Virus record (IMG/VR): IMGVR_UViG_3300027821_000007 | Span: 1-64,000 of that record | Strand: one strand, 5' to 3' | Origin: a virus | DNA length: 64,000 nucleotides | Part shown: positions 730 through 23,488 of the stretch, piece by piece | Numbering within the stretch: position 1 is the stretch's first letter | How the letters are laid out: every line of letters starts with the position of its first letter | The notes under the pieces: model-generated | What the model saw: only the letters and a program-made list of their open reading frames with translations | Told to the model about the DNA's origin: nothing | The model's database searches: none | Made by a program: the position numbers and the translations under genes

Positions 730-1485
730 CTATGCCCCCTGCGGTTCGGGCGGAGCGACGTCCCAGCGGTCCTGGTAGTCGTCCCTCAGGAGATTGTAGA
801 TCTGGTCGGAGCACCCGTTGAGCAGGACGGCGTTCGCGCGCCACAGCCTGTCGGCGTCGGAGCGGTTCACCGCGGCGCGCAGCCGGTGGCGAAAGGCGCG
901 CAGGTCGCCGTCGAGCGGTTCGTCGGGCGGCTCGTCGGCCTGCGGCGCCATCGCTTCGGGCGGCAGGTCGTCGCGGGGATCGTCGTGCCGGGGAGCGAAC
1001 GGCTCGGTCGGCGGCGGCCGTTTGGGCGGCTCGAAATCGTCGCGGTCGCGCTCTATGTCGGCGACGTCTGAGGGGATTTTAAACAGTGCGATACTGTATT
1101 GTTTTAATGCACTGGTCAACGCCTTGGCCGTTGCTTTATCGTCATAACTACCAGCTCGAAACTGGAACCGGCAGGCGGCGGAATACGACCCGATGTTGAT
1201 CACCGCCTGCTCTTCGCAGTAGGCGTCAAACTCGTATTTCATGATCAATATCCCGCCGATCACGGCGCGGCTGATCTCGCGCGGCGACAGCACCAGCTTG
1301 TGCTTGACCATGGCATCCTGCACATGAGCCATCAAGACCGTTGCTTCGACGAAACGATACTTATGCTCTTTATTGGTCCCGGACTTGGGAACCTCCTCGA
1401 CCTCGCGCATGACGCCCACGATCGCCTGGGCCACCTTGGGGGCGCCTTCAGGCGGAACGAAGATGGGCCGGACGATGTCGCTCAT
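730..1485 (-). CDS. ERF-family ssDNA-annealing recombinase
   Basis: KSGTNKEHKYRF...DDKATAKALTSALKQYSIALFKIPSD resembles the ERF signature; GGAGG RBS before MSDIV; next to ssb. Confidence 0.8.
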   Translation of the reverse strand: MSDIVRPIFVPPEGAPKVAQAIVGVMREVEEVPKSGTNKEHKYRFVEATVLMAHVQDAMVKHKLVLSPREISRAVIGGILIMKYEFDAYCEEQAVINIGSYSAACRFQFRAGSYDDKATAKALTSALKQYSIALFKIPSDVADIERDRDDFEPPKRPPPTEPFAPRHDDPRDDLPPEAMAPQADEPPDEPLDGDLRAFRHRLRAAVNRSDADRLWRANAVLLNGCSDQIYNLLRDDYQDRWDVAPPEPQGA

Positions 1486-1541
1486 CGGTGCCTCCAATGC
1501 AAAACCGCCCCGCCCCGGAATGGGACGAGGCGGCCTGGGAT

Positions 1542-1679
1542 TTAAAAAAGCGACGTCACGGCACGCCACGCTAGCCACACCGCCAGCGCTACAAGGAGGA
1601 GCTCGACCAGGACCTGACCCAGGGCCCGGCCGAAAGCCTCACGGAAACTCGGGCGGGGTGTCGGCGTCGGCTTATTCAT
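1542..1679 (-). CDS. small membrane protein (45 aa)
   Basis: MNKPT...VLVELLLVALAVWLAW; GGAGG RBS. Confidence 0.55.
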   Translation of the reverse strand: MNKPTPTPRPSFREAFGRALGQVLVELLLVALAVWLAWRAVTSLF

Positions 1680-1924: not shown

Positions 1925-2857
1925 TCAGGGCAGCGACGAGACCGCATCGTCGGCAATGATCTTCCATTGCATGATGCCGGGTCGCTGGATCGGGATCTCC
2001 GGCAACGCCGGATCGGGAGGGATGGGGTCTGGAGCCATGATGGCGATCGGCGCCTCGGCCACGGGCTCCTGGGCAATTCGCTCCGGCAGCTCGTGCTGAT
2101 CAGAAACCTGATCTACAAGCCCGGAGACCTGATCCAGTAGCTCCATGGCGTCGGCCGACGCCCGCTTGGCGTTCCAGCCATCCATCACGTGCATCGGCGT
2201 GTACCAATGCTCCTCCATTTTCGTGCTCAGGGCATTGCCCCGATAAACGATTGCCGGAATGCCCAACAGCGACAGGTGCACGTACGTCATGTGGACGCAG
2301 TGCGGATCTATGTCGACCGCCGAGACATGCAGGTGTTTCTGGAAATTTATGCCTTCATCCTTCAGGACCTTGGCCGCAGCCAGGACCATTCCACCGGCAC
2401 CGCAGCAGGGCTCCATCACAGTGATGAAGCCCTTGCGGCCCATGACTTTGCGGATGTCTTCACCCGAACAGAGGTTCATCTTGGCCATCATCAGGCAGAG
2501 ATGGAATGGCGAGAAGAACTGTCCCCAGTGCTTCATGGCGCTCGCGCTGCCGAGCTCGAGCCGCGACATGATCGCCTGCAAAGGCGGTTCGTCGAAGTCC
2601 TGCATGGCCAGCGAGAGCAGCGCCATCATCTCAGCCATCTTGCGGGCTTCCTCTTTCGAGTATTTGCCCACGATGGTCATGTAGCGAGCCTCGCGTTCGT
2701 CATATTGTCTGATGTCGACGGAATTGGAGATAGCTAATGCGCACATCTCCACCCAGTCGCAAAACACATGGTCGACGCGGTGACGGGAGTCGAAGGAATT
2801 CAGGGTCCGCGCCAACTCATCCAGAGGAGGGCGCGTGACTTTTTGCAGCTTTGACAT
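1925..2857 (-). CDS. N6-adenine DNA methyltransferase-like protein lacking the catalytic NPPY/F motif
   Basis: GQFFSP, EPCCGAGGM (motif I), AVDID and GNALS present; no (N/D)PP(Y/F) downstream. Confidence 0.75.
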   Translation of the reverse strand: MSKLQKVTRPPLDELARTLNSFDSRHRVDHVFCDWVEMCALAISNSVDIRQYDEREARYMTIVGKYSKEEARKMAEMMALLSLAMQDFDEPPLQAIMSRLELGSASAMKHWGQFFSPFHLCLMMAKMNLCSGEDIRKVMGRKGFITVMEPCCGAGGMVLAAAKVLKDEGINFQKHLHVSAVDIDPHCVHMTYVHLSLLGIPAIVYRGNALSTKMEEHWYTPMHVMDGWNAKRASADAMELLDQVSGLVDQVSDQHELPERIAQEPVAEAPIAIMAPDPIPPDPALPEIPIQRPGIMQWKIIADDAVSSLP

Positions 2858-2860
2858 GGT

Positions 2861-2912
2861 TGATGTCTCTCTGCCGGGCGGGATTGCCCGGAACCTTGCG
2901 GTTTCGGCATCA
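2861..2912 (-). ncRNA. hammerhead-like RNA, circularly permuted (type II topology)
   Basis: RNA: UGAUGCC-GAA-ACC gcaa GGU-U-CCGGGC..GCCCGG-CAGAGA-GACAUCA, 3 nt before the AUG at 2857. Confidence 0.6.
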
Positions 2913-2968
2913 GGACGACGAAAGCCCCGCCGCCTCGCGGCAACGGGGCTGGAAAACCCTTACACGGT

Positions 2969-3172
2969 TCAGTCGCCTATTGTTCTCGAAAGCGAAAATT
3001 CGGACAGCACCTCCATCACCTCGTGCGGCTCGGGACAACCCTGGTTTTCCAGAGCGTCCCTAAAGTCGAAGAGCCGACGAATGATGCGTGTCTTGGTTCG
3101 CATTGATGGGGGATCGAGCATGGCGAGCAGCAGGCCGTGCAAGGCTTCCGTTGTGGTCGTCTTTTTGGCCAT
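2969..3172 (-). CDS. hypothetical protein (67 aa)
   Basis: ATG directly follows a leader element. Confidence 0.7.
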   Translation of the reverse strand: MAKKTTTTEALHGLLLAMLDPPSMRTKTRIIRRLFDFRDALENQGCPEPHEVMEVLSEFSLSRTIGD

Positions 3173-3177
3173 GGGAT

Positions 3178-3239
3178 GACCTTTCGCCGGACTGTCAGGC
3201 CGGCTCTCTGCCGCACAGGATTGCCCTGTGCGAAAGGTC
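3178..3239 (-). ncRNA. hammerhead-like leader RNA (type III topology)
   Basis: GACCU-U-stem I-CAGAGA-stem II-GAA-AGGUC. Confidence 0.65.
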
Positions 3240-3277
3240 GGGAAGGAACCCGCGCCGGTGAGGGCGCGGGCCCAGTT

Positions 3278-3427
3278 TCAGATGCCGTGCAGCTTTTTGA
3301 ACTTCTTGAGGTCTTGCAGCGATCTGCTCGATGCGCTCGACCTCTGCTGCAGCTTCTTGAGGAGTTGCGGCCCAACGACGGGCCCGTACTTCTTTATGAA
3401 GCTTTTCAGAGTGCGGATGATTTCCAC
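3278..3427 (-). CDS. small basic protein (49 aa, GTG start)
   Basis: Manual translation MEIIRTLKSFIKKYGPVVGPQLLKKLQQRSS...KKLHGI; AAAGGAG adjacent; below ORF-track cutoff. Confidence 0.6.
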   Translation of the reverse strand: MEIIRTLKSFIKKYGPVVGPQLLKKLQQRSSASSRSLQDLKKFKKLHGI

Positions 3428-3429
3428 CT

Positions 3430-3480
3430 CCTTTCACCCGGGTTGTTCCCGGGATCATCTGCCCCGCGGTGCGGGGAAGG
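3430..3480 (-). ncRNA. hammerhead-like leader RNA with 7-nt core CAGAUGA
   Basis: CCU-U-CCCCGC..GCGGGG-CAGAUGA-stem II-GAA-AGG. Confidence 0.6.
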
Positions 3481-3487
3481 CGCCCGC

Positions 3488-3727
3488 TTACGCGGGCGTC
3501 GGCTTCTTGCTGACGATGCGGCAATAGGGCTCTTCGCATTCGATCCATACCCGGGCCCCGCTCTTGAGCGGGGTGTCCGGCGCATAGACCACGCGCGCCT
3601 GGCCCTCGATCTCGACCTCCGAGGCCGAGATGCGCCGTCCGTTTCGCATGATGCTGATGGGTGGGGTGCGGTCGCCAGATTTCTGGTTCGCCGCTATGAT
3701 ATGGCGATTGATGTAGATCTTTGCCAT
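3488..3727 (-). CDS. conserved phage hypothetical protein (79 aa)
   Basis: IYINRHIIAAN...RVVYAPDTPLKSGARVWIE pattern, which I recall as recurrent in phages. Confidence 0.8.
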   Translation of the reverse strand: MAKIYINRHIIAANQKSGDRTPPISIMRNGRRISASEVEIEGQARVVYAPDTPLKSGARVWIECEEPYCRIVSKKPTPA

Positions 3728-3731
3728 AGCG

Positions 3732-3944
3732 TTACTCTTTCAGGAAAGGGTTTGGATCTTCAGGAATGAAAGCGCGCTGATACAGCCGGGCAATTTCTTC
3801 CATTGCGAGGATCACGGTGAACACCGCGTTGGTGCCATCCGGCCCAAGGCCGATGACTTCCATCTCGACGCCCCACCGATCGGCCCCGACAAAACGGACC
3901 GTGCCGGCTTCCAACAACTTTCTATCGCGTTGCTTGATGATCAT
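3732..3944 (-). CDS. hypothetical protein (70 aa)
   Basis: ATG follows a leader element. Confidence 0.7.
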   Translation of the reverse strand: MIIKQRDRKLLEAGTVRFVGADRWGVEMEVIGLGPDGTNAVFTVILAMEEIARLYQRAFIPEDPNPFLKE

Positions 3945-3949
3945 GGTTT

Positions 3950-4004
3950 GCCTTTCGCCGGCATGCAGCCGGCTCTCTGCCGTGCGGGGATCCGCACGAA
4001 AGGC
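3950..4004 (-). ncRNA. hammerhead-like leader RNA (type III)
   Basis: GCCU-U-UCGUGCGG aucc CCGCACGG-CAGAGA-GCCGG cugcaug CCGGC-GAA-AGGC-aaacc-AUG. Confidence 0.65.
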
Positions 4005-4009
4005 GCCCG

Positions 4010-4342
4010 CTAAGCGGGCGTCCCGAAAACCACCTGTCCTGGGAACAGGTAGTCTTCTGCTTCTTCATCGTCGGGCTTCATGCCTGATGAGTTGTCGAGG
4101 CAGTTCTCGAGGACGACTTCCGCCGCCTCGACCAACTCCGCGTCCAGCAGTACCGTGTAGGGAAAGGTCGGTACGTTGCTGTCCGGGTAGCCGGTCTCCT
4201 CGATCAACCTCAGCAGCGCATCGGCCCGGGCGATCTCGAACGGGTCCGCGTTGTCGCGGACGACCTCCTCCATCCCCTCGGCCATGCTGTGAAAGACACA
4301 GAGGGCGCGAGGGTCGGGGAAGGTGATGATGTTGGCTGGCAT
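4010..4342 (-). CDS. acidic hypothetical protein (110 aa)
   Basis: ATG follows a leader element; D/E-rich. Confidence 0.75.
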   Translation of the reverse strand: MPANIITFPDPRALCVFHSMAEGMEEVVRDNADPFEIARADALLRLIEETGYPDSNVPTFPYTVLLDAELVEAAEVVLENCLDNSSGMKPDDEEAEDYLFPGQVVFGTPA

Positions 4343-4348
4343 TGGGTT

Positions 4349-4403
4349 TGCCTTTCGCCGCGATCAGGCGGCTCTCTGCCGGACCCAGCGGGGCCGGAAG
4401 GCA
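4349..4403 (-). ncRNA. hammerhead-like leader RNA (type III)
   Basis: Same core and three stems with different stem sequences. Confidence 0.65.
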
Positions 4404-4430
4404 CCTGCGCTGTCGGGCGCAGGGCCGGGC

Positions 4431-4655
4431 TTAGTAATGCGTGAGGCGATAGCTGAACTGCGCCTCGGGGAGGTTCTTCAGCATGGTCATAAGCCGACCC
4501 TCGGCCCACATGTCGATCCGCTCCATCGGGGCATCGCCAGGGAATGGCGCCTCCTCGATGCAATAGAGAACGAACACGTGGTCGGCTGGCGAACGGACCA
4601 TGAAGGTCACGTACCAGCGTGTCGCGGCGTCGGAACAGGTGATATTGATTGCCAT
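4431..4655 (-). CDS. hypothetical protein (74 aa, MAINITC...)
   Basis: Start 4 nt after the stop of the upstream gene. Confidence 0.6.
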   Translation of the reverse strand: MAINITCSDAATRWYVTFMVRSPADHVFVLYCIEEAPFPGDAPMERIDMWAEGRLMTMLKNLPEAQFSYRLTHY

Positions 4656-4659
4656 CGCA

Positions 4660-4884
4660 CTACCACTGCCAGTTGGATGGAAGTCTCTTGTGGAGATCAT
4701 CGCATCGTTTTTCGAAATACAGGGCGTCGTTGATCTGGCCCGCAACCCGCATCAACATCGCCGCCCGCTTGTTGTGGGCGAAATCGAGCAGCACTTGCAG
4801 GTGGGTGGCGAAATCCGCCAGGTCCTCCGGCATCATGTTGTCCGCATTGATGTTGTCGAGGTCGTAGGCGAACGCGTTCGCCAT
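4660..4884 (-). CDS. hypothetical protein (74 aa)
   Basis: ATG follows a leader element. Confidence 0.7.
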   Translation of the reverse strand: MANAFAYDLDNINADNMMPEDLADFATHLQVLLDFAHNKRAAMLMRVAGQINDALYFEKRCDDLHKRLPSNWQW

Positions 4885-4888
4885 GGAA

Positions 4889-4945
4889 TTTCCTTTCGCC
4901 CAGTCAGGGGCTCTCTGCCGGTCGCCGTTATGGGCCGGGAGGAAA
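4889..4945 (-). ncRNA. hammerhead-like leader RNA (type III, NUH=CUC)
   Basis: UUUCCU-C-stem I-CAGAGA-GCCC cugacu GGGC-GAA-AGGAAA. Confidence 0.65.
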
Positions 4946-4976
4946 TGAGTGATGGTGGGGGCATCGCCCCCACCAG

Positions 4977-5312
4977 CTAGGACGCGCTAATCGTGTGTTC
5001 GAGAAACACCGCCATGCAGTGAACCAACCGCTTCCGCCGCGCTTCAAAATCCTTGGCCGGAATGCTGCGAATGTTCGCCAGCAATTTGTGGGTTTCCTCG
5101 AGCAACACAACAGCCGCGATGATGTCCTTGGCTGCAAGCGCGGTTCGCTCCGCGTCTTCAGCCCGATATTTCAGGTCGTTATGGTCCGTCTGGTTTACGT
5201 CGTTGGCTCGCGCATCGGCCAACTCGTGCAACCGGTCAGCCTGCGCATCGGCAAGGATGACCAGTTCGTCGAGAAGCTCCATGCTGATCACGACGACTTT
5301 CTGGTGGGACAT
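4977..5312 (-). CDS. hypothetical helical protein (MSHQKVV...)
   Basis: Start reassigned to the ATG right after the leader element. Confidence 0.7.
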   Translation of the reverse strand: MSHQKVVVISMELLDELVILADAQADRLHELADARANDVNQTDHNDLKYRAEDAERTALAAKDIIAAVVLLEETHKLLANIRSIPAKDFEARRKRLVHCMAVFLEHTISAS

Positions 5313-5316
5313 TCGG

Positions 5317-5373
5317 TGCCTTTCGCCGCAGTCAGGCGGCTCTCTGCCGGTTGCCGTTATGGGCCGGAAGGCA
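5317..5373 (-). ncRNA. hammerhead-like leader RNA (type III)
   Basis: UGCCU-U-stem I-CAGAGA-GCCGC cugacu GCGGC-GAA-AGGCA. Confidence 0.65.
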
Positions 5374-5389
5374 GCGATAGGCGGGCGCG

Positions 5390-5689
5390 TCACTCGGACG
5401 CGCCGCCGTCATCAGTGGGGTGAATTCGCCACGGCGGGTCGACGAAAATGCGCTGGTTCCGGTGTTCCGGCTCCAGCGTGTGCTTGGTGATCATGCGCGG
5501 GATGAGCTCATCGAACTTCGTGTGCATCACGTGCACCTGTCCCTTCGTGAGAAACTCGTCCCACATACACCGGAACGGGTCCGGGTCCGGGGACCCCCGC
5601 TTAGCACTGTCCATGCGTTCGTCGCGCTTGTCGGCGACCTTCTCCAAGGTCATCCGCAACCGGCGTGGATACTTCTTCGGTTTGGCCAT
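5390..5689 (-). CDS. hypothetical protein (MAKPKKY...)
   Basis: Start reassigned to the ATG after the leader element. Confidence 0.7.
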   Translation of the reverse strand: MAKPKKYPRRLRMTLEKVADKRDERMDSAKRGSPDPDPFRCMWDEFLTKGQVHVMHTKFDELIPRMITKHTLEPEHRNQRIFVDPPWRIHPTDDGGASE

Positions 5690-5692
5690 GTT

Positions 5693-5751
5693 TGGCTTTC
5701 GCCGGCACACAGGCCGGCTCTCTGCCGGACCCGTCATGGGGCCGGAAGCCA
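5693..5751 (-). ncRNA. hammerhead-like leader RNA (type III)
   Basis: Stem III covaries to UGGCU/AGCCA; core CAGAGA. Confidence 0.65.
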
Positions 5752-5788
5752 GTCGAGATGGACGCGGGAGCTTGCGCCCCCGCGCCGC

Positions 5789-6610
5789 TCAGGCGTCGAG
5801 ATCCTCGATCGCCTTGTGAACGACCGCTGACCGCTTGTCGATTTCGTCCTCGACGGACCCGAGGTCGGGAAACATGCCGCGGATCGCGGCGACCTGATGG
5901 TCGATCATCTTGATCACGTCATGCAGGTTTTCCCGCTCGGCCTCGTCACGCACCTTGAGCGCGTTGGCGACGAACTCGGCGGCCCAGGGCCGCAAGAAAC
6001 CACGCGGATGCTTGAGCGGATGGTTCTCCAGATTAGCCAGAATCGTGCGGCGGATATTGGTGCAGATCTCCATGTAGGCCGCATTGAGGCGCCCACCCGG
6101 CTTGACGACTTCGTCGTCCTGCGTGGTCGGCCACTCCTTCATGGTGAAGATGTCCCTGATCGGGACGCCCTGGAGCACGGACAGCGTGTCAGCCGCGGCC
6201 CACCGGAATATCTCCTGGTAGTCCTCGGGGATGTCCGCATCCTTGATGGTGTTCCCCAGCGCATGCAGGATCTCGGCACGCCCGACCATCTCGTCAGGAC
6301 GCCCGCCGCCAAAAGCGATCAGGGCGCGCTGGTGATAGGCCAGTCGCTCGACCTCCACGATGCGTTGCATATGAGGCTGGTTGGGGAAACTTCTCCAGGT
6401 CACCAGAGGGCCGGCGAGGATCGCCGATTGCTTTTCGGCAACCGGCCTGCTGAACCCGAGCATCGCGTGAATGTCGCGAAATAGGGACAGGCTCTCGGGC
6501 GGCACGCCATAGAGGGCACACTCCGCGAGCACGAGCGCGAAGAAATCGCTTTCCTTCGCGGTCTGCATCAGAGGGTTCCGGAGCATTCGGATGATGTCTG
6601 TTGATGGCAT
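5789..6610 (-). CDS. hypothetical protein (273 aa)
   Basis: Long ORF with natural composition; ATG after a leader element. Confidence 0.8.
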   Translation of the reverse strand: MPSTDIIRMLRNPLMQTAKESDFFALVLAECALYGVPPESLSLFRDIHAMLGFSRPVAEKQSAILAGPLVTWRSFPNQPHMQRIVEVERLAYHQRALIAFGGGRPDEMVGRAEILHALGNTIKDADIPEDYQEIFRWAAADTLSVLQGVPIRDIFTMKEWPTTQDDEVVKPGGRLNAAYMEICTNIRRTILANLENHPLKHPRGFLRPWAAEFVANALKVRDEAERENLHDVIKMIDHQVAAIRGMFPDLGSVEDEIDKRSAVVHKAIEDLDA

Positions 6611-6613
6611 TGG

Positions 6614-6678
6614 TTTGCCTTTCTCCCGGGTATGCAGCCGGGTTCTCTGCCGTGCGGGGGATCCGCACGAGAGGCAAA
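6614..6678 (-). ncRNA. hammerhead-like leader RNA (type III, NUH=CUC)
   Basis: UUUGCCU-C-stem I-CAGAGA-stem II-GAA-AGGCAAA. Confidence 0.65.
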
Positions 6679-6719
6679 AGCGTGAAGGGGTCCCAACGAG
6701 CGTATCGCTGGGACCCGGT

Positions 6720-7271
6720 TCAGGATCTGTCGAGGAACTCCCACTCGGGAGCGTCCTCGGGGGCCGCGTCGGCTATCTTCAACGGGCCCGAGGTTTCGAT
6801 GGCGCCATGGGTGGCGTCCATCATCGCAGTGGCGTAGCGGCTATAAAGCTCTGTTCCGAATTCTGTGTTTTCGCGAACGAGACGCTTCCACAAAGCCTTT
6901 ACGTCGTGTTCAGTCTTGGCTTTCAGGCGGATCCGGACGGAAACCGGACGGTCCTGAACCAGGAACAGGTCCATCTCATAGAGATGAGGGGCCAGTTCCT
7001 CGCGGGTGGTGACTTGTTGGGTTTCGATCTTGCGATACTCGGAAACCGAGATCGCGACGTCGTAGAGGTCCTCGAAGCTCAGGGCTTCGTCGGTATCCTC
7101 GTGCGGTTTGACCACCGCCTGGCCGCCCGGCAACCCAACGAGGACCGTCAGGTTATGCAGCCGGGCGTGGAGGATCATGTTGGCTGAATCCGTGCCAACG
7201 GCTTGCCTCATGCAATCGAGGTGTTCGAGCTGCTCGGTGGGGTGGCCCTGGCGGAAGACCGACATCTGCAT
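6720..7271 (-). CDS. hypothetical protein (183 aa)
   Basis: Abuts the upstream gene; GGAGG RBS. Confidence 0.75.
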   Translation of the reverse strand: MQMSVFRQGHPTEQLEHLDCMRQAVGTDSANMILHARLHNLTVLVGLPGGQAVVKPHEDTDEALSFEDLYDVAISVSEYRKIETQQVTTREELAPHLYEMDLFLVQDRPVSVRIRLKAKTEHDVKALWKRLVRENTEFGTELYSRYATAMMDATHGAIETSGPLKIADAAPEDAPEWEFLDRS

Positions 7272-7272
7272 G

Positions 7273-7782
7273 TCAGGCCCTCCGCTGGTCGGTGAGAAGG
7301 TAATACGGCTGGACGTTGATGATTTTAACGTCCTCGATGGCCGTCACGTCGCCGATTTCCAGTTTTCCCATCAGGGAGGAGATTTCCTCCGGCTTGATCT
7401 GGACAAAGAAGTCCTTGGGGCGGGGTTGCTGTCCCGTGAAAACGTCGTGGACGGTGCCCTTGACGTTGTGGTCGGAATGACCTCGACACTGGATCTTCAC
7501 TGGGACAATGAGCGTGAGCTCGGCGTCCACCAGGTAATCCTGTGTCATGCGCTTGGGTTGGGACAGCATGAGATGCTGCTGGATCGGCTCGGCATATAGT
7601 TCTCGTGGACTTCGCCATACTTTGGCGGGGCCGTCCGTGAGTTCGACAACTCGTCTGACGTTGCCGCTGAGCTCCCACAGGAGGTCCTCGACCACGTCCT
7701 TGTCGGCCAGCATGCTCAACAGGGTGAGCCCGCTGACGTTGAGGATTTCGCCGTTGTCCTTGTGGATCATGAAATAGGACAT
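7273..7782 (-). CDS. hypothetical protein (MSYFMIHKD...)
   Basis: Start reassigned to the ATG after the permuted leader element. Confidence 0.75.
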   Translation of the reverse strand: MSYFMIHKDNGEILNVSGLTLLSMLADKDVVEDLLWELSGNVRRVVELTDGPAKVWRSPRELYAEPIQQHLMLSQPKRMTQDYLVDAELTLIVPVKIQCRGHSDHNVKGTVHDVFTGQQPRPKDFFVQIKPEEISSLMGKLEIGDVTAIEDVKIINVQPYYLLTDQRRA

Positions 7783-7783
7783 G

Positions 7784-7860
7784 GGGTTTCCTTGTCTACC
7801 CGACGGTGCGCCGCGGTATGCGTCGCTTGCCTGCCGGAAACCTTGCGGTTTCGGAAACCC
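7784..7860 (-). ncRNA. hammerhead-like RNA, type II topology, U3-A8 core (UAGACAA)
   Basis: GGGUUUCC-GAA-ACC gcaa GGU-U-UCCGGC..GUCGGG-UAGACAA-GGAAACCC-c-AUG. Confidence 0.6.
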
Positions 7861-7918
7861 GTCCCGGGGTGGCCTGGCGTAGCCAGGCGTAACCATACGG
7901 GGCGATATTCGTTACGTA

Positions 7919-7947
7919 TATATGGCGATTATGCCGAGATGGATCAA
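7919..7947 (-). promoter_or_regulatory. putative leftward promoter TTGATC-N17-CATATA
   Basis: Heads the leftward operon; shares CATAATCGCCATAT with the site at 18453-18481. Confidence 0.5.
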
Positions 7948-8367
7948 CCGGTTATCGACAATATTGTGGTGGACCTGAAATTCTCCGCTTGCGCGCGCCG
8001 GGCGTGGTGCTAGGTTTCCGGCTTCGCCGAAAACGAGTGAAGGCCCGGCGAGGACCGGGCCTTCGATCGATTTGAGGCGGAAAACTAGGCTTCCGGGTGA
8101 ATCAAAAGAGGATAGATAGGTCAGGCACGTCGTCCAGCAGTCTCCTGATATATAGATAACGCTCCACCCTACGCAAGCGTTTGTAGGTCAAGGCACCTCA
8201 CCCGGGCATCACACCGCCGTATGACAACCGTCATGCGGGCGTTACACCGGGGGGAGGAAACCGTCCCATGCGTGCATGCACAATTTCGATTTCGGTGGTC
8301 CAGCCGCATGGGAAAGCACGCGTCGACGTGAAGGACGTGATGCTGCCCTCCTTGTGAGGGGGCGGCC

Positions 8368-19157: not shown

Positions 19158-19160
19158 GGT

Positions 19161-19224
19161 TTGCCTTTCGCTTCCAGTGGCAGGGAAGCTCTCTGCCCCA
19201 CATGGGATCATATGGGAAAGGCAA
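19161..19224 (-). ncRNA. hammerhead-like leader RNA (type III)
   Basis: UUGCCU-U-stem I-CAGAGA-GCUUCC cugccacu GGAAGC-GAA-AGGCAA. Confidence 0.65.
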
Positions 19225-19261
19225 TAAGGAAAGGCCCCACCCGAAGGCGGGGCCATGGCAG

Positions 19262-19678: not shown

Positions 19679-19687
19679 GAGGTATTG

Positions 19688-19749
19688 TCCCTTTCGCGCC
19701 CAGCAGCAGGGGCGCTCTCTGCCCCATGCCGAATGACATGGGAAAGGGA
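19688..19749 (-). ncRNA. hammerhead-like leader RNA (type III)
   Basis: Stem III UCCCU/AGGGA; core CAGAGA. Confidence 0.65.
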
Positions 19750-19859
19750 TGGGTGGCTTCAGCCATGCCGCGCGGATCGCAGCATGGGTGGCATGTGGGG
19801 AAGCCTCCGGAGAGGCGGGGGAATGAGGGGGCCGGCCCCGGCGGGACCAGCCATGCCGC

Positions 19860-20411: not shown

Positions 20412-20420
20412 TGTAGCCTC

Positions 20421-20482
20421 CTTGGTTTCGCCGGCCTTTTCTAGAGAAGCCGGCTGATCTCCCCCCGCGAGGGGGTACCAAG
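20421..20482 (-). ncRNA. hammerhead-like leader RNA with G3-C8 core (GAGAUCA), NUH=GUA
   Basis: CUUGGU-A-CCCCC ucgc GGGGG-GAGAUCA-GCCGGC..GCCGGC-GAA-ACCAAG-gaggcuaca-AUG. Confidence 0.6.
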
Positions 20483-20624
20483 TCTTTTCGCTTGTGTTAT
20501 AGATATAGGGTTTAGTTGTATAAATGCAAGTGTTTTGTGTGATTTTGTTGAATAAAATCAGTATTTTATGCGCTTTTGAGGGGTCCGGCCCCGATCCCTG
20601 TGCAGGATCGGGGCGAACTTCTCA

Positions 20625-21023: not shown

Positions 21024-21029
21024 TGGTTT

Positions 21030-21091
21030 TGCCTTTCGCACCCCAGTAGCAGGGGATGCTCTCTGCCAGCCCCGGAAGGGACTGAAAGGCA
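21030..21091 (-). ncRNA. hammerhead-like leader RNA (type III)
   Basis: Core CAGAGA; loop II CUGCUACU. Confidence 0.65.
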
Positions 21092-21121
21092 CGGTCCGGG
21101 ATTACCGGACCGCTTGGGTTC

Positions 21122-21241: not shown

Positions 21242-21249
21242 TTGGTTTT

Positions 21250-21305
21250 GCCTTTCGCGTCCAGTCAGGGACGCTCTCTGCCAGCTCCGGATGGAACTGA
21301 AAGGC
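21250..21305 (-). ncRNA. hammerhead-like leader RNA (type III)
   Basis: Core CAGAGA; stem II GCGUCC/GGACGC. Confidence 0.65.
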
Positions 21306-21334
21306 GACCCGCGCAGTGGCGGGCCTCCGGAGTG

Positions 21335-21550: not shown

Positions 21551-21560
21551 TTGGGGGTCT

Positions 21561-21619
21561 GCCTTTCGCATCCATTCAGGGACGCTCTCTGCCGGTCCCC
21601 GGGATCGGGGCCGAAAGGC
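21561..21619 (-). ncRNA. hammerhead-like leader RNA (type III)
   Basis: Core CAGAGA; stem II GCGUCC/GGAUGC (G-U wobble on the - strand). Confidence 0.65.
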
Positions 21620-21645
21620 GACCCGCGATGCGGGCCTCCAACCCG

Positions 21646-21864: not shown

Positions 21865-21870
21865 TGGCGT

Positions 21871-21931
21871 GTGCCTTTCGCGCCATGCAGGGCGCTCTCT
21901 GCCGGACACCCGTGTCGGGGCCGAAAGGCAC
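21871..21931 (-). ncRNA. hammerhead-like leader RNA (type III)
   Basis: GUGCCU-U-stem I-CAGAGA-GCGCC cugcau GGCGC-GAA-AGGCAC. Confidence 0.65.
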
Positions 21932-21953
21932 CCCGCACATGGCGGGGCAGTCT

Positions 21954-22190
21954 TCAGTCTTGGGCGCCCAGCCACACGACGGGAAAACCGTCATGCTTGG
22001 CGGCTTCCTGCAGATGGTCGATCCAGTTGATGAGACCGTCCAACCCAGGATCCGTGTCCGCGAGGCTGAGCAAGAGCTGTTTTTGTTGGGAAAGTAGCTT
22101 CCAGTCCGTCGCGGCGAAGATGTCTTCGACGTGCAGACCGGCCCAGTCATCCCGCAGTGAGCGGGGACCGTTGGGAGGTGGGGTAAGCAT
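21954..22190 (-). CDS. hypothetical protein (78 aa)
   Basis: AAGGA RBS; first gene of the leftward cluster. Confidence 0.7.
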   Translation of the reverse strand: MLTPPPNGPRSLRDDWAGLHVEDIFAATDWKLLSQQKQLLLSLADTDPGLDGLINWIDHLQEAAKHDGFPVVWLGAQD

Positions 22191-22390
22191 TTGATGCTTC
22201 CTTGTGTTTGGGGATATGGATTTCGTCGGATTTCCTAGAGACAGGCCATCATGGTGGGATCGTGCGATCCGCGGGCCTTCCCGACTGAACTCGCCGGGCT
22301 TGAAGCCGGCTATCCATCGCGTAGTCTAAAGGTGGTGTTTCGTAATGAAAAATCAAGGTGTAAGGCAGTTTTCTGCCATTTGAGGGGGTT

Positions 22391-23488
22391 ATGAGACGCG
22401 AAACAGCGCCCGAAATGGTGCTATTGGCCAAGCTGCTCTACGAAACTAGGGAAATCAGTTTCTCGCAGTTGACTGGCCAATTCGACATCCAAAAGACGTT
22501 GATTGGCGGATTTTCCAATAAACAAGGCTGGACGCCGTTCCCAAATGTGGTGGAACAACTCGCCAAACAGGTGGAAACTGAGGCTATGGAAGCGGTGAAG
22601 AAGCATCGGCCTGGGCGGCCCGTCAACGGCCAGAAGCCGTTCGAGCTACCCAAGCGCTCGCCAGGTCGGCCACGCATATACCCGCGTGATCGCAACGCCA
22701 GGCCAACCACCGAGGAGCAGATCCTCATCAAGCAAGCGCGCGAACTGTGGGAGGCCGGCAAGGGCAACAAGGCCCAGGTCGCGGCTTTGCTCGGTATCCC
22801 GGTGACCCGGCTTTACCACGCATCGAAGGTGCAGAACTGGGTTGATCCACGGCTTGCCAAAATGAAAGCAGAGTATCCAGAGAGTTTTGCGACTTCAGGA
22901 TTTATTATTCCACCACCTTCGCCGGACACAGCCAAAGCACAGTTGCAAATAACGCTATCGGCTATTCGCGGTATGATGTCGAGGCGGCAAATATACCAAC
23001 TCGATGACTTCGAAGAGCTCATAGCAAAATACGGTCATCTTATAGAAGTGTATCTTGATCCTCATCGCTTTGTTGATGAGCGAGGACTGTCTGCCGATGA
23101 AATCGTCAGGCGGGTCGCGGAGGTACAGGGCACGGCTCTGCGGTTACTGACCCCCACCAAGCAGGACAGCCTGAGCGGATCGCTCAAGACCTACACCGAC
23201 GCGCTGATGCGCAGCATCGAACTCAAGCGCGCGATCGCCGGGCTGAACAAGCTGGTGCCGCCACCCGATGGCGAGGTCGACGAGGAACAAGGCGGCGATC
23301 GCCACATCCTCGACATGCAAACCCTGTCGACCGAGGAGTTGCGGGTCGTGCAGCGTGGGATGGAACTGCTCGAGCGCCACCAGAGGGCAGCGCGCAGCCT
23401 GCCGAGGCCGCCGGCGCCGGACGGCATCGACGACCTGCTCGGCCCCGAACCTCAGGTGGTCCAAGACCCCGATATCGCGCCGCGGTAA
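22391..23488 (+). CDS. DNA-binding protein, possible terminase small subunit
   Basis: PGRP AT-hook-like motifs, HTH (ELWEAGKGNKAQVAALLGIP), C-terminal LDMQTLSTEELR resembling TerS tails. Confidence 0.5.
   Translation: MRRETAPEMVLLAKLLYETREISFSQLTGQFDIQKTLIGGFSNKQGWTPFPNVVEQLAKQVETEAMEAVKKHRPGRPVNGQKPFELPKRSPGRPRIYPRDRNARPTTEEQILIKQARELWEAGKGNKAQVAALLGIPVTRLYHASKVQNWVDPRLAKMKAEYPESFATSGFIIPPPSPDTAKAQLQITLSAIRGMMSRRQIYQLDDFEELIAKYGHLIEVYLDPHRFVDERGLSADEIVRRVAEVQGTALRLLTPTKQDSLSGSLKTYTDALMRSIELKRAIAGLNKLVPPPDGEVDEEQGGDRHILDMQTLSTEELRVVQRGMELLERHQRAARSLPRPPAPDGIDDLLGPEPQVVQDPDIAPR

Follow-up and report, generated by a model that had tools for sequence, protein, structure and literature searches.

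Hammerhead-like three-way junctions joined to the ribosome-binding site recur before small genes in a phage genome

Clustered hammerhead ribozymes that flank single genes in prophages of Agrobacterium tumefaciens and Azorhizobium caulinodans cleave in vitro and in vivo, and Perreault et al. 2011 (PMC3088659) already proposed that processing of long phage transcripts yields mRNAs the length of single genes. The biological role of many bacterial and phage hammerheads is still largely open. Here we analyse the first 64 kb (the window) of the IMG/VR phage record IMGVR_UViG_3300027821_000007, which is 91.5 kb long and has a GC content of 63%, and describe a repeated element of about 60 nt that forms a three-way junction between small genes and carries the Shine-Dalgarno (SD) sequence of the following gene in one of its helices. 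Judging from sequence, we see an even chance that these repeats are a clade-specific, strongly diverged variant of the hammerhead whose cut would free the SD in polycistronic operons of small genes.

The prophage clusters described in PMC3088659 are the closest known case. As there, several three-way-junction motifs lie between small genes on one transcript in phage DNA linked to alphaproteobacteria, both type II and type III are used, positions 3 and 8 covary, and a U10.1-U11.1 mismatch is seen. Unlike the CUGANGA cores of those clusters, the core here is CAGAGA, with A at position 4 and no N7; loop II appears to form a pseudoknot with positions 3-5, the SD always lies in the open helix, and a GC hairpin abuts the element. 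The window elements, for which cleavage is a prediction, escape detection by Rfam. A second comparison comes from engineered switches, in which a Schistosoma hammerhead in a bacterial 5′ untranslated region (UTR) holds the SD in an extended stem and releases it by cleavage (PMC12192606, section 3.3). Here too the SD is paired inside a helix and cleavage would free it, but those devices are synthetic, aptamer-controlled and built on a canonical core, whereas the present elements are natural, occur in ~17 copies per genome and have no visible ligand domain. In fungal and plant RNA viruses, self-cleaving ribozymes in the 5′ UTR are required for translation initiation (PMC13725137). The likeness lies in a small ribozyme-like element just upstream of a viral open reading frame (ORF), with cleavage tied to translation in those viruses; they differ in being eukaryotic and cap-independent, and in using canonical type I hammerhead, hepatitis delta virus (HDV) or twister ribozymes without SD masking. 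The novelty of the present case lies in its variant core, in a pseudoknot that competes with that core, in an SD systematically built into the element in either permutation, and in a hairpin placed directly against it. The element has no Rfam family.

Read on the minus strand, the module comprises a GC hairpin; GCCUU followed by one unpaired base; the stem I hairpin; the junction CAGAGA; the stem II hairpin, with a loop that opens with CUG; GAAAGGC; a short CA-rich spacer; and AUG. In this type III (stem-III-open) anatomy, GCCUU is the 5′ strand of stem III and the anti-SD, the SD is the 3′ strand, and position 17 is the single unpaired nucleotide between the 5′ strand of stem III and stem I. 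A covariance model built from the copies themselves (R1) found 14 elements in the 91.5-kb genome, all within the window, with E-values from 2e-21 to 4e-8. Two circularly permuted, type II (stem-II-open) copies and one divergent type III copy, which R1 missed, were found by hand and with a descriptor script, which brings the window total to 17 (Table 1). R1 also detected 18, 17 and 6 copies in three related phages of ~100 kb and further copies in three alphaproteobacterial genome assemblies, two of which are named as alphaproteobacterial; others lie in metagenome contigs bearing an orthologous gene. The full set of 78 type III copies comes from nine sources: four related ~100-kb phages, the three assemblies and two metagenome contigs. 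Subsets of it were used for helix covariation and start codons (54 copies, from the four phages), for hairpins (61) and for the core (63), and all 78 for the 3-8 pair and the pseudoknot.

All three helices covary. Across the 54 copies, 93% of helix cells are paired compared with 31-49% when the partners are slid, and 14 of 18 helix pairs show double compensatory changes; G-U pairs are kept, on the coding strand only, and R1 scores on the reverse strand are near noise. A start codon follows GAAAGG by 2-13 nt in 54/54 copies, each time opening an ORF of at least 39 aa, with a spacing from SD to start of 5-11 nt in most. Stem III has 4-7 bp, with GAAAGG as its 3′ strand, and carries compensatory changes such as GGCUU/AAGCC and GUCUU/AAGAC. 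Upstream, a GC hairpin ends 0-15 nt before stem III in all 14 R1 copies of the window and is present in 51/61 copies overall, against 37% of random 45-nt windows; in 34 of the 61 it ends within 3 nt of stem III. The hairpin stems are 6-11 bp long. A U-tract follows only two of the 51, on which ground we rejected the hairpins as intrinsic terminators. In about half of the copies, 0-10 nt separate the element from the stop codon of the preceding gene, which is often inside the hairpin; in the remainder the distance is 15-62 nt. With so many distant stops, translational coupling was rejected as a general mechanism. The order of stop, hairpin, junction, SD and start is confirmed as real, far beyond chance. 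A first-pass annotation of the window, made from its letters, had listed 18 elements, 17 of them just before start codons, with the SD in the 3′ strand of the closing stem and usually a GC hairpin without a U-tract upstream. Model, script and hand searches together gave 17 elements, close to those 18, the start codons and stem III compensation bear out the placement of the elements and of the SD, and the hairpins of the 14 R1 copies stand where that annotation had put them.

The junction has much in common with a hammerhead. Three helices surround it in the order III-17-I-core-II-GAA-III, or in the permuted order. Among the 63 copies, U16.1, A15.1 and G12 occur in 63/63 each, A14 and G5 in 62 each, A9 in 61 and A6 in 60; position 17 is never G (U in 46, C in 10, A in 7), and the pair closing stem II, 10.1-11.1, is mostly G-C. 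Positions 3 and 8, the first and second-to-last bases of the junction, covary as Watson-Crick partners, with C-G in 63 of the 78 type III copies, G-C in 5, U-A in 3 and C/A in 7. Covariation extends to type II copies, which have no loop II (U-A twice, C-G twice) and which are also found at orthologous leaders of two relatives, with the junctions CAGAAGA and UAGACAA. The C3-G8 tertiary pair of hammerheads is known to covary naturally to U3-A8 (PMC3088659, section 8). Position N7 is missing from most copies; where present, it is G, A or C in assembly G099 and C or A in the type II form, as expected from the unconstrained N7 of hammerheads.

Two copies in the same context come closer still to the canonical form, with CUGACGA, GAA and C17. 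One, on the plus strand at L191:15100-15175 (assembly G099, contig C2), is a near-canonical type II hammerhead with A15.1-U16.1 that reaches 22.8 bits (E=0.55) with Rfam Hammerhead_II, below the 37-bit threshold, and shares its operon with eight pseudoknotted copies of the CUGANAA or GUGAUCA kind. The other, on the plus strand of a metagenome contig (L176:255-330), is a type II-like hammerhead with a canonical core directly before the orthologue of a 273-aa gene, which in the window phage carries the variant element. It has a long stem III in place of the usual upstream hairpin and an upstream TGA stop directly before the stem II strand, and a search with Rfam did not detect it. In both CUGACGA copies the SD, GAGG, coincides with G8-A9-G10.1-G10.2.

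Topology speaks for release of the SD. In both permutations the SD lies in the open helix, the anti-SD strand comes before the predicted cleavage site and the SD strand after it; because the two strands are on opposite sides of position 17, any cut there would part them. The idea that cleavage would shed the anti-SD and leave the upstream RNA ending in a hairpin is thus sound in its topology for both permutations. We propose that the transcript folds and that the core would cleave itself after position 17. The 4-7 bp of stem III could then dissociate and the anti-SD depart with the upstream RNA, which would end in its protective GC hairpin plus 5-6 nt. The downstream cistron would begin with a 5′-OH and the stem I hairpin, its SD free and translation on. 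With ~17 copies per genome, in two permutations, that join a ribozyme-like core to the ribosome-binding site, a direct function suggests itself, in which cutting would unmask translation and trim each cistron to ends capped by hairpins.

Several observations weigh against an active hammerhead. No Rfam ribozyme family matched positions 2700-8000 at E<=10, and RF00008 (Hammerhead_3) matched nothing genome-wide at the same cut-off. In place of the consensus C3 U4 G5 A6 N7 G8 A9, 13 of the 14 type III R1 copies in the window read CAGAGA and so lack N7. Accepted hammerheads have U at position 4; all window copies have A there, G, C and U are found outside the window, and the base follows loop II rather than catalysis. 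In 71/78 copies, loop II opens with three bases that can pair with positions 3-5, in six complementary combinations (CAG:CUG, CUG:CAG, CGG:CCG, UAG:CUA, GUG:CAC and GCG:CGC), and the divergent window copy adds a further one, GAG:CUC. Compensation occurs at the pairs of positions 3 and 4, with the pair between G5 and the first loop base (C) invariant. These counts were tabulated by script, as loop II is misaligned in about one row in three of the model-based alignment. They provide strong evidence for an H-type pseudoknot of positions 3-5 with loop II, which the first-pass annotation had overlooked. Positions 3-5 border the catalytic pocket in the known structure of the hammerhead, distant from loop II, so that core and pseudoknot would be alternative states, and the pseudoknot would be incompatible with an active core. 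Since position 3 pairs both with position 8 and with loop II, it would be selected for two partners.

Other departures count on the same side. A13 is replaced by C in six copies of the 63, none of them in the window (L047:8981, L050:3804, L047:7606, L050:4635, L049:5759 and L047:8282), where GCAAGG or GCUAGG stands for GAAAGG. Two phages with only 42-44% identity between their proteins retain such copies before orthologous genes, with stem I rewritten, and the change usually comes together with A17 and a stronger SD (GGGAGG or AGGAGG). A C3/A8 mismatch is found in six CUGANAA copies in G099 and in one CAGAAA copy in G002. By thermodynamic folding, stems I and II and the hairpin are robust and stem III is marginal; nearest-neighbour calculations give AAAGG a mean unpaired probability of 0.42, rising to 0.64 after a virtual cut at position 17, and the predicted masking of the SD is only moderate. 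The hammerhead reading stands in part: the covarying 3-8 pair, a position 17 that is never G, the variable N7 and the near-canonical copies support it, but with A at position 4, N7 mostly missing and no Rfam match the core departs from every accepted hammerhead.

We infer that the pseudoknot is a second state of the element, serving as a brake before cutting or as a lock after it. As a lock, pairing of positions 3-5 with loop II after the cut would dismantle the core, block re-ligation and re-masking, and leave a compact knot at the new 5′ end; as a brake, it would delay the cut. A specific form of this proposal is a two-state hammerhead in which positions 3-5 alternate between catalytic core and pseudoknot, and one cut sheds the anti-SD and is followed by irreversible refolding into a protective 5′ knot. 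We put this form forward tentatively and think it rather unlikely to hold in full. If true, it would be the first example in nature of an SD unmasked by a ribozyme, give bacterial and phage hammerheads a concrete function and make U4 dispensable. An active core with A4 and without N7 would widen the accepted sequence space of hammerheads to a form that Rfam models miss, and the competing pseudoknot would amount to built-in conformational control.

The same fold could also act without catalysis, as a structured operator, descended from a hammerhead or only resembling one, that holds the SD in a marginal helix, so that the opening of stem III sets or times translation. The SD is paired in a conserved helix directly before the start codon, as in SD-sequestering riboregulators such as riboswitch expression platforms and r-protein operators, and stem III compensation is retained even at the cost of a weakened SD (GAAAGA, GAAAGC). 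The thermodynamic marginality of stem III would suit a switchable helix. The invariant junction and the strongly supported pseudoknot may be recognised in trans by a protein or by a ligand, and such an operator would account for the maintained A13 to C and C3/A8 copies. Where the upstream stop lies 0-10 nt away, as in about half of the copies, terminating ribosomes may open the stem; in the other half the stop, at 15-62 nt, is beyond their reach. An operator also leaves several observations unexplained: positions 3 and 8 covary even in the permuted copies, which have no loop II, G is avoided at position 17, and near-canonical cores turn up in the same context. No candidate binding factor emerged, and none of the ten cassette proteins tested matched Pfam or PHROG. 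No riboswitch is known to be present in 14-18 copies per genome before unrelated genes. We regard an operator of this kind as a genuine possibility that nevertheless falls short of an even chance. If the core is inactive, the repeats would show plainly how a ribozyme fold can be put to new use in translational control, as an operator.

Other structured RNAs fitted less well and were set aside. M23 RNA (Rfam, E=1.1) was dropped, as the match covers only stem II and GAAAGG. A tRNA-like element or RNase P substrate was dropped as well: the 3′ tail reads A-(C/A)-A-C-C, not NCCA, and a cut by RNase P at the 5′ end of stem III would leave the SD masked. The hairpin, twister, twister-sister, pistol, hatchet and HDV folds gave no Rfam signal, and their strand order does not fit. 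At the Rfam gathering threshold there was no match in the window and none in the loci of its relatives except one tRNA in L051. Viral contigs were also searched for the same stem III around a canonical CUGAUGA core; the search returned at least 111 raw matches, which we judged to be chance because none combines a type III hammerhead fold with a start codon next to it. A literature search on U4A hammerheads returned only unrelated U4atac papers.

The arrangement of genes and gaps bears on a further explanation. Modules with an abutting hairpin occupy every intergenic gap longer than about 60 nt, whereas genes without one either overlap their neighbour by 1 nt or stand 4 nt from it (stop to start; 7271/7273, 4655/4660 and 3727/3732). 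A compact pseudoknotted junction behind a hairpin at each gap of the longer kind might be punctuation for host enzymes: it could block exonucleases or the scanning of RNase E, or be cut by a host or phage RNase, and would insulate the cistrons of a long transcript. In the early polycistronic mRNA of phage T7, structured intergenic RNase III sites yield units that end in a stabilising hairpin. The T7 sites need a host enzyme and form long hairpins with imperfect pairing; the present hairpins are short, next to an element that seems self-sufficient. Stems of 6-11 bp are too short as RNase III substrates, the conserved core pattern is specific to hammerheads, and punctuation offers no reason for the SD to form a strand of the closing helix in both permutations. 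We consider such a role improbable.

Every gene in 2.9-7.9 kb and in 19-22.2 kb lies on the minus strand, and most are small. The first of these operons (2.9-7.9 kb) extends downstream through an N6 DNA methyltransferase gene (1925-2857, minus strand) and also includes a gene for an ERF-family single-strand annealing protein (730-1578, minus strand); a primase-helicase gene (8368-10554) is divergent from its promoter region. Gene content and position are what suggest the label of early mRNA for this transcript. Inside 2.5-8.5 kb, no promoter or terminator signal rose above chance, and promoter- and terminator-like sites within the operons, the second included, occurred at chance level only. 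A blastn search of 2700-8000 against GenBank phages gave no match. For the 273-aa protein, a single-sequence search also gave no match; an alignment search returned only two known relatives among viral contigs and three short contigs among metagenomes. Elsewhere in the window, a 331-aa protein (15352-16347) had no Pfam match.

Among the related phages, units of element plus ORF vary in number between conserved anchor genes, whose protein clusters are c0, c2, c5 and c4 in operon 1 and c1 and c3 in operon 2, and 31/59 downstream proteins are singletons. For 25/36 elements the nearest relative of stem I lies in the same genome, before an unrelated gene, against ~17.5% expected. The earlier suggestion that the repeats are points of recombination for shuffling accessory genes agrees with these variable unit numbers and with stems most alike within a genome; the comparison of gene order in related phages that had been advised yields variable cassettes between conserved anchors. 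Duplication or recombination at the repeats fits, and the ERF protein may assist. In this region the stretches that still align between the relatives share only 66-77% identity, which prevented the mapping of exact breakpoints.

Such turnover might mean that the repeats are recombination sites at the DNA level, in the style of integron attC sites or T4 promoter-stem-loop cassettes, with the RNA structure incidental. The variable units, the many singletons, the resemblance of stems within a genome and the ERF-family gene in the same operon would all be at home in that explanation. Integron attC sites are inverted repeats that work with a tyrosine recombinase, but a PF00589 (tyrosine recombinase/integrase) search of the genome gave no match, and the repeat is strand-specific and tied to the SD. 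In the T4 cassettes each early stem-loop has a promoter, whereas no promoter accompanies the repeats here. Covariation preserves RNA pairing, G-U pairs included, on the coding strand only, with reverse-strand scores near noise, and the element keeps a fixed position relative to the SD and start codon. We consider it very unlikely that DNA-level recombination is the main function of the repeats, and recombination at them is better seen as a by-product. Under SD release by a diverged hammerhead, the repeated modules would serve as short homologies for the gain, loss and swap of cassettes, as a side effect. Whether or not the core cuts, hairpin, fold and ribosome-binding site make up a portable unit that moves with fast-turnover accessory genes, of interest for phage genome evolution and as a template for synthetic insulators.

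Table 1. Hammerhead-like elements and associated features in the window (all on the minus strand)
Module or copy	Element	Upstream hairpin	Start codon	Type	Found by	Remarks
2858-2911				II, permuted	Descriptor search	Before N6-methyltransferase gene
3174-3273	3174-3240	3246-3273	ATG 3172	III	R1, E=5e-17	
3425-3497	3425-3483	3482-3497	GTG	III	R1, E=4e-8	Hairpin holds upstream TAA
3945-4019	3945-4006	4005-4019, abutting	ATG 3944	III	R1	Upstream TAG in hairpin loop
4345-4423	4345-4404	4404-4423	ATG 4342	III	R1	
4886-4975	4886-4945	4953-4975	ATG 4884	III	R1	
5313-5404	5313-5374	5384-5404	ATG 5312	III	R1	
5689-5786	5689-5752	5761-5786		III	R1	Stem III GGCUU/AAGCC (weakened SD)
6612-6716	6612-6677	6688-6716	ATG 6610	III	R1	Before conserved 273-aa gene (cluster c0)
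7786-7860				II, permuted	Descriptor search	Leader of the operon's first gene
19158-19254	19158-19224	19233-19254		III	R1	Hairpin with T-rich tail
19684-19787	19684-19749	19763-19787		III	R1	
20418-20483				III, divergent		Junction GAGAUCA (G3...C8); loop II CUC complementary to GAG
21026-21113	21026-21092	21091-21113, abutting		III	R1	
21245-21325	21245-21307	21306-21325, abutting		III	R1	Top R1 score, 75 bits
21556-21636	21556-21621	21620-21636, abutting		III	R1	
21868-21948	21868-21931	21930-21948, abutting		III	R1	

Individual copies vary within this scheme. The element at 3425-3483 has the core CAGAUGA, in which A4 is the sole departure from the canonical sequence; it carries a U10.1/U11.1 mismatch and lacks both complementarity to loop II and a pseudoknot; the GTG of its ORF lies only 2 nt after GAAAGGAG, and its stem I is identical to that of copies in phage G003 (L051). 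From its sequence it looks like a chimera of a 5′ half from the family and a more canonical 3′ half. The permuted copy at 7786-7860 runs in the order GGGUUUCC, GAA, stem III ACC-GCAA-GGU, U17, stem I, UAGACAA, GGAAACCC (the SD) and AUG, and that at 2858-2911 in the order GAUGCC, GAA, ACC-GCAA-GGU, U17, stem I, CAGAGA, GACAUC and AUG. Their short stem III, ACC-GCAA-GGU with a GNRA tetraloop, is identical (2888-2907 and 7834-7854, minus strand) and is nested in a longer CCGAAACC/GGUU(U)CCGG hairpin. In the divergent copy at 20418-20483, the SD AAGGAGG lies partly within stem III.

The leader of the second operon's first gene (22190-22300, minus strand; ATG at 22190) has no recognisable module, and no hammerhead permutation could be parsed there; an AT-rich, promoter-like stretch lies nearby at ~22340-22400. 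A second AT-rich region, at 20490-20600 on the minus strand, carries the promoter-like hexamers TTGCAT...TATATC and follows a GC hairpin without a U-tract (~20585-20615). The divergent module lies downstream of these hexamers and may form the 5′ end of a transcript of its own.

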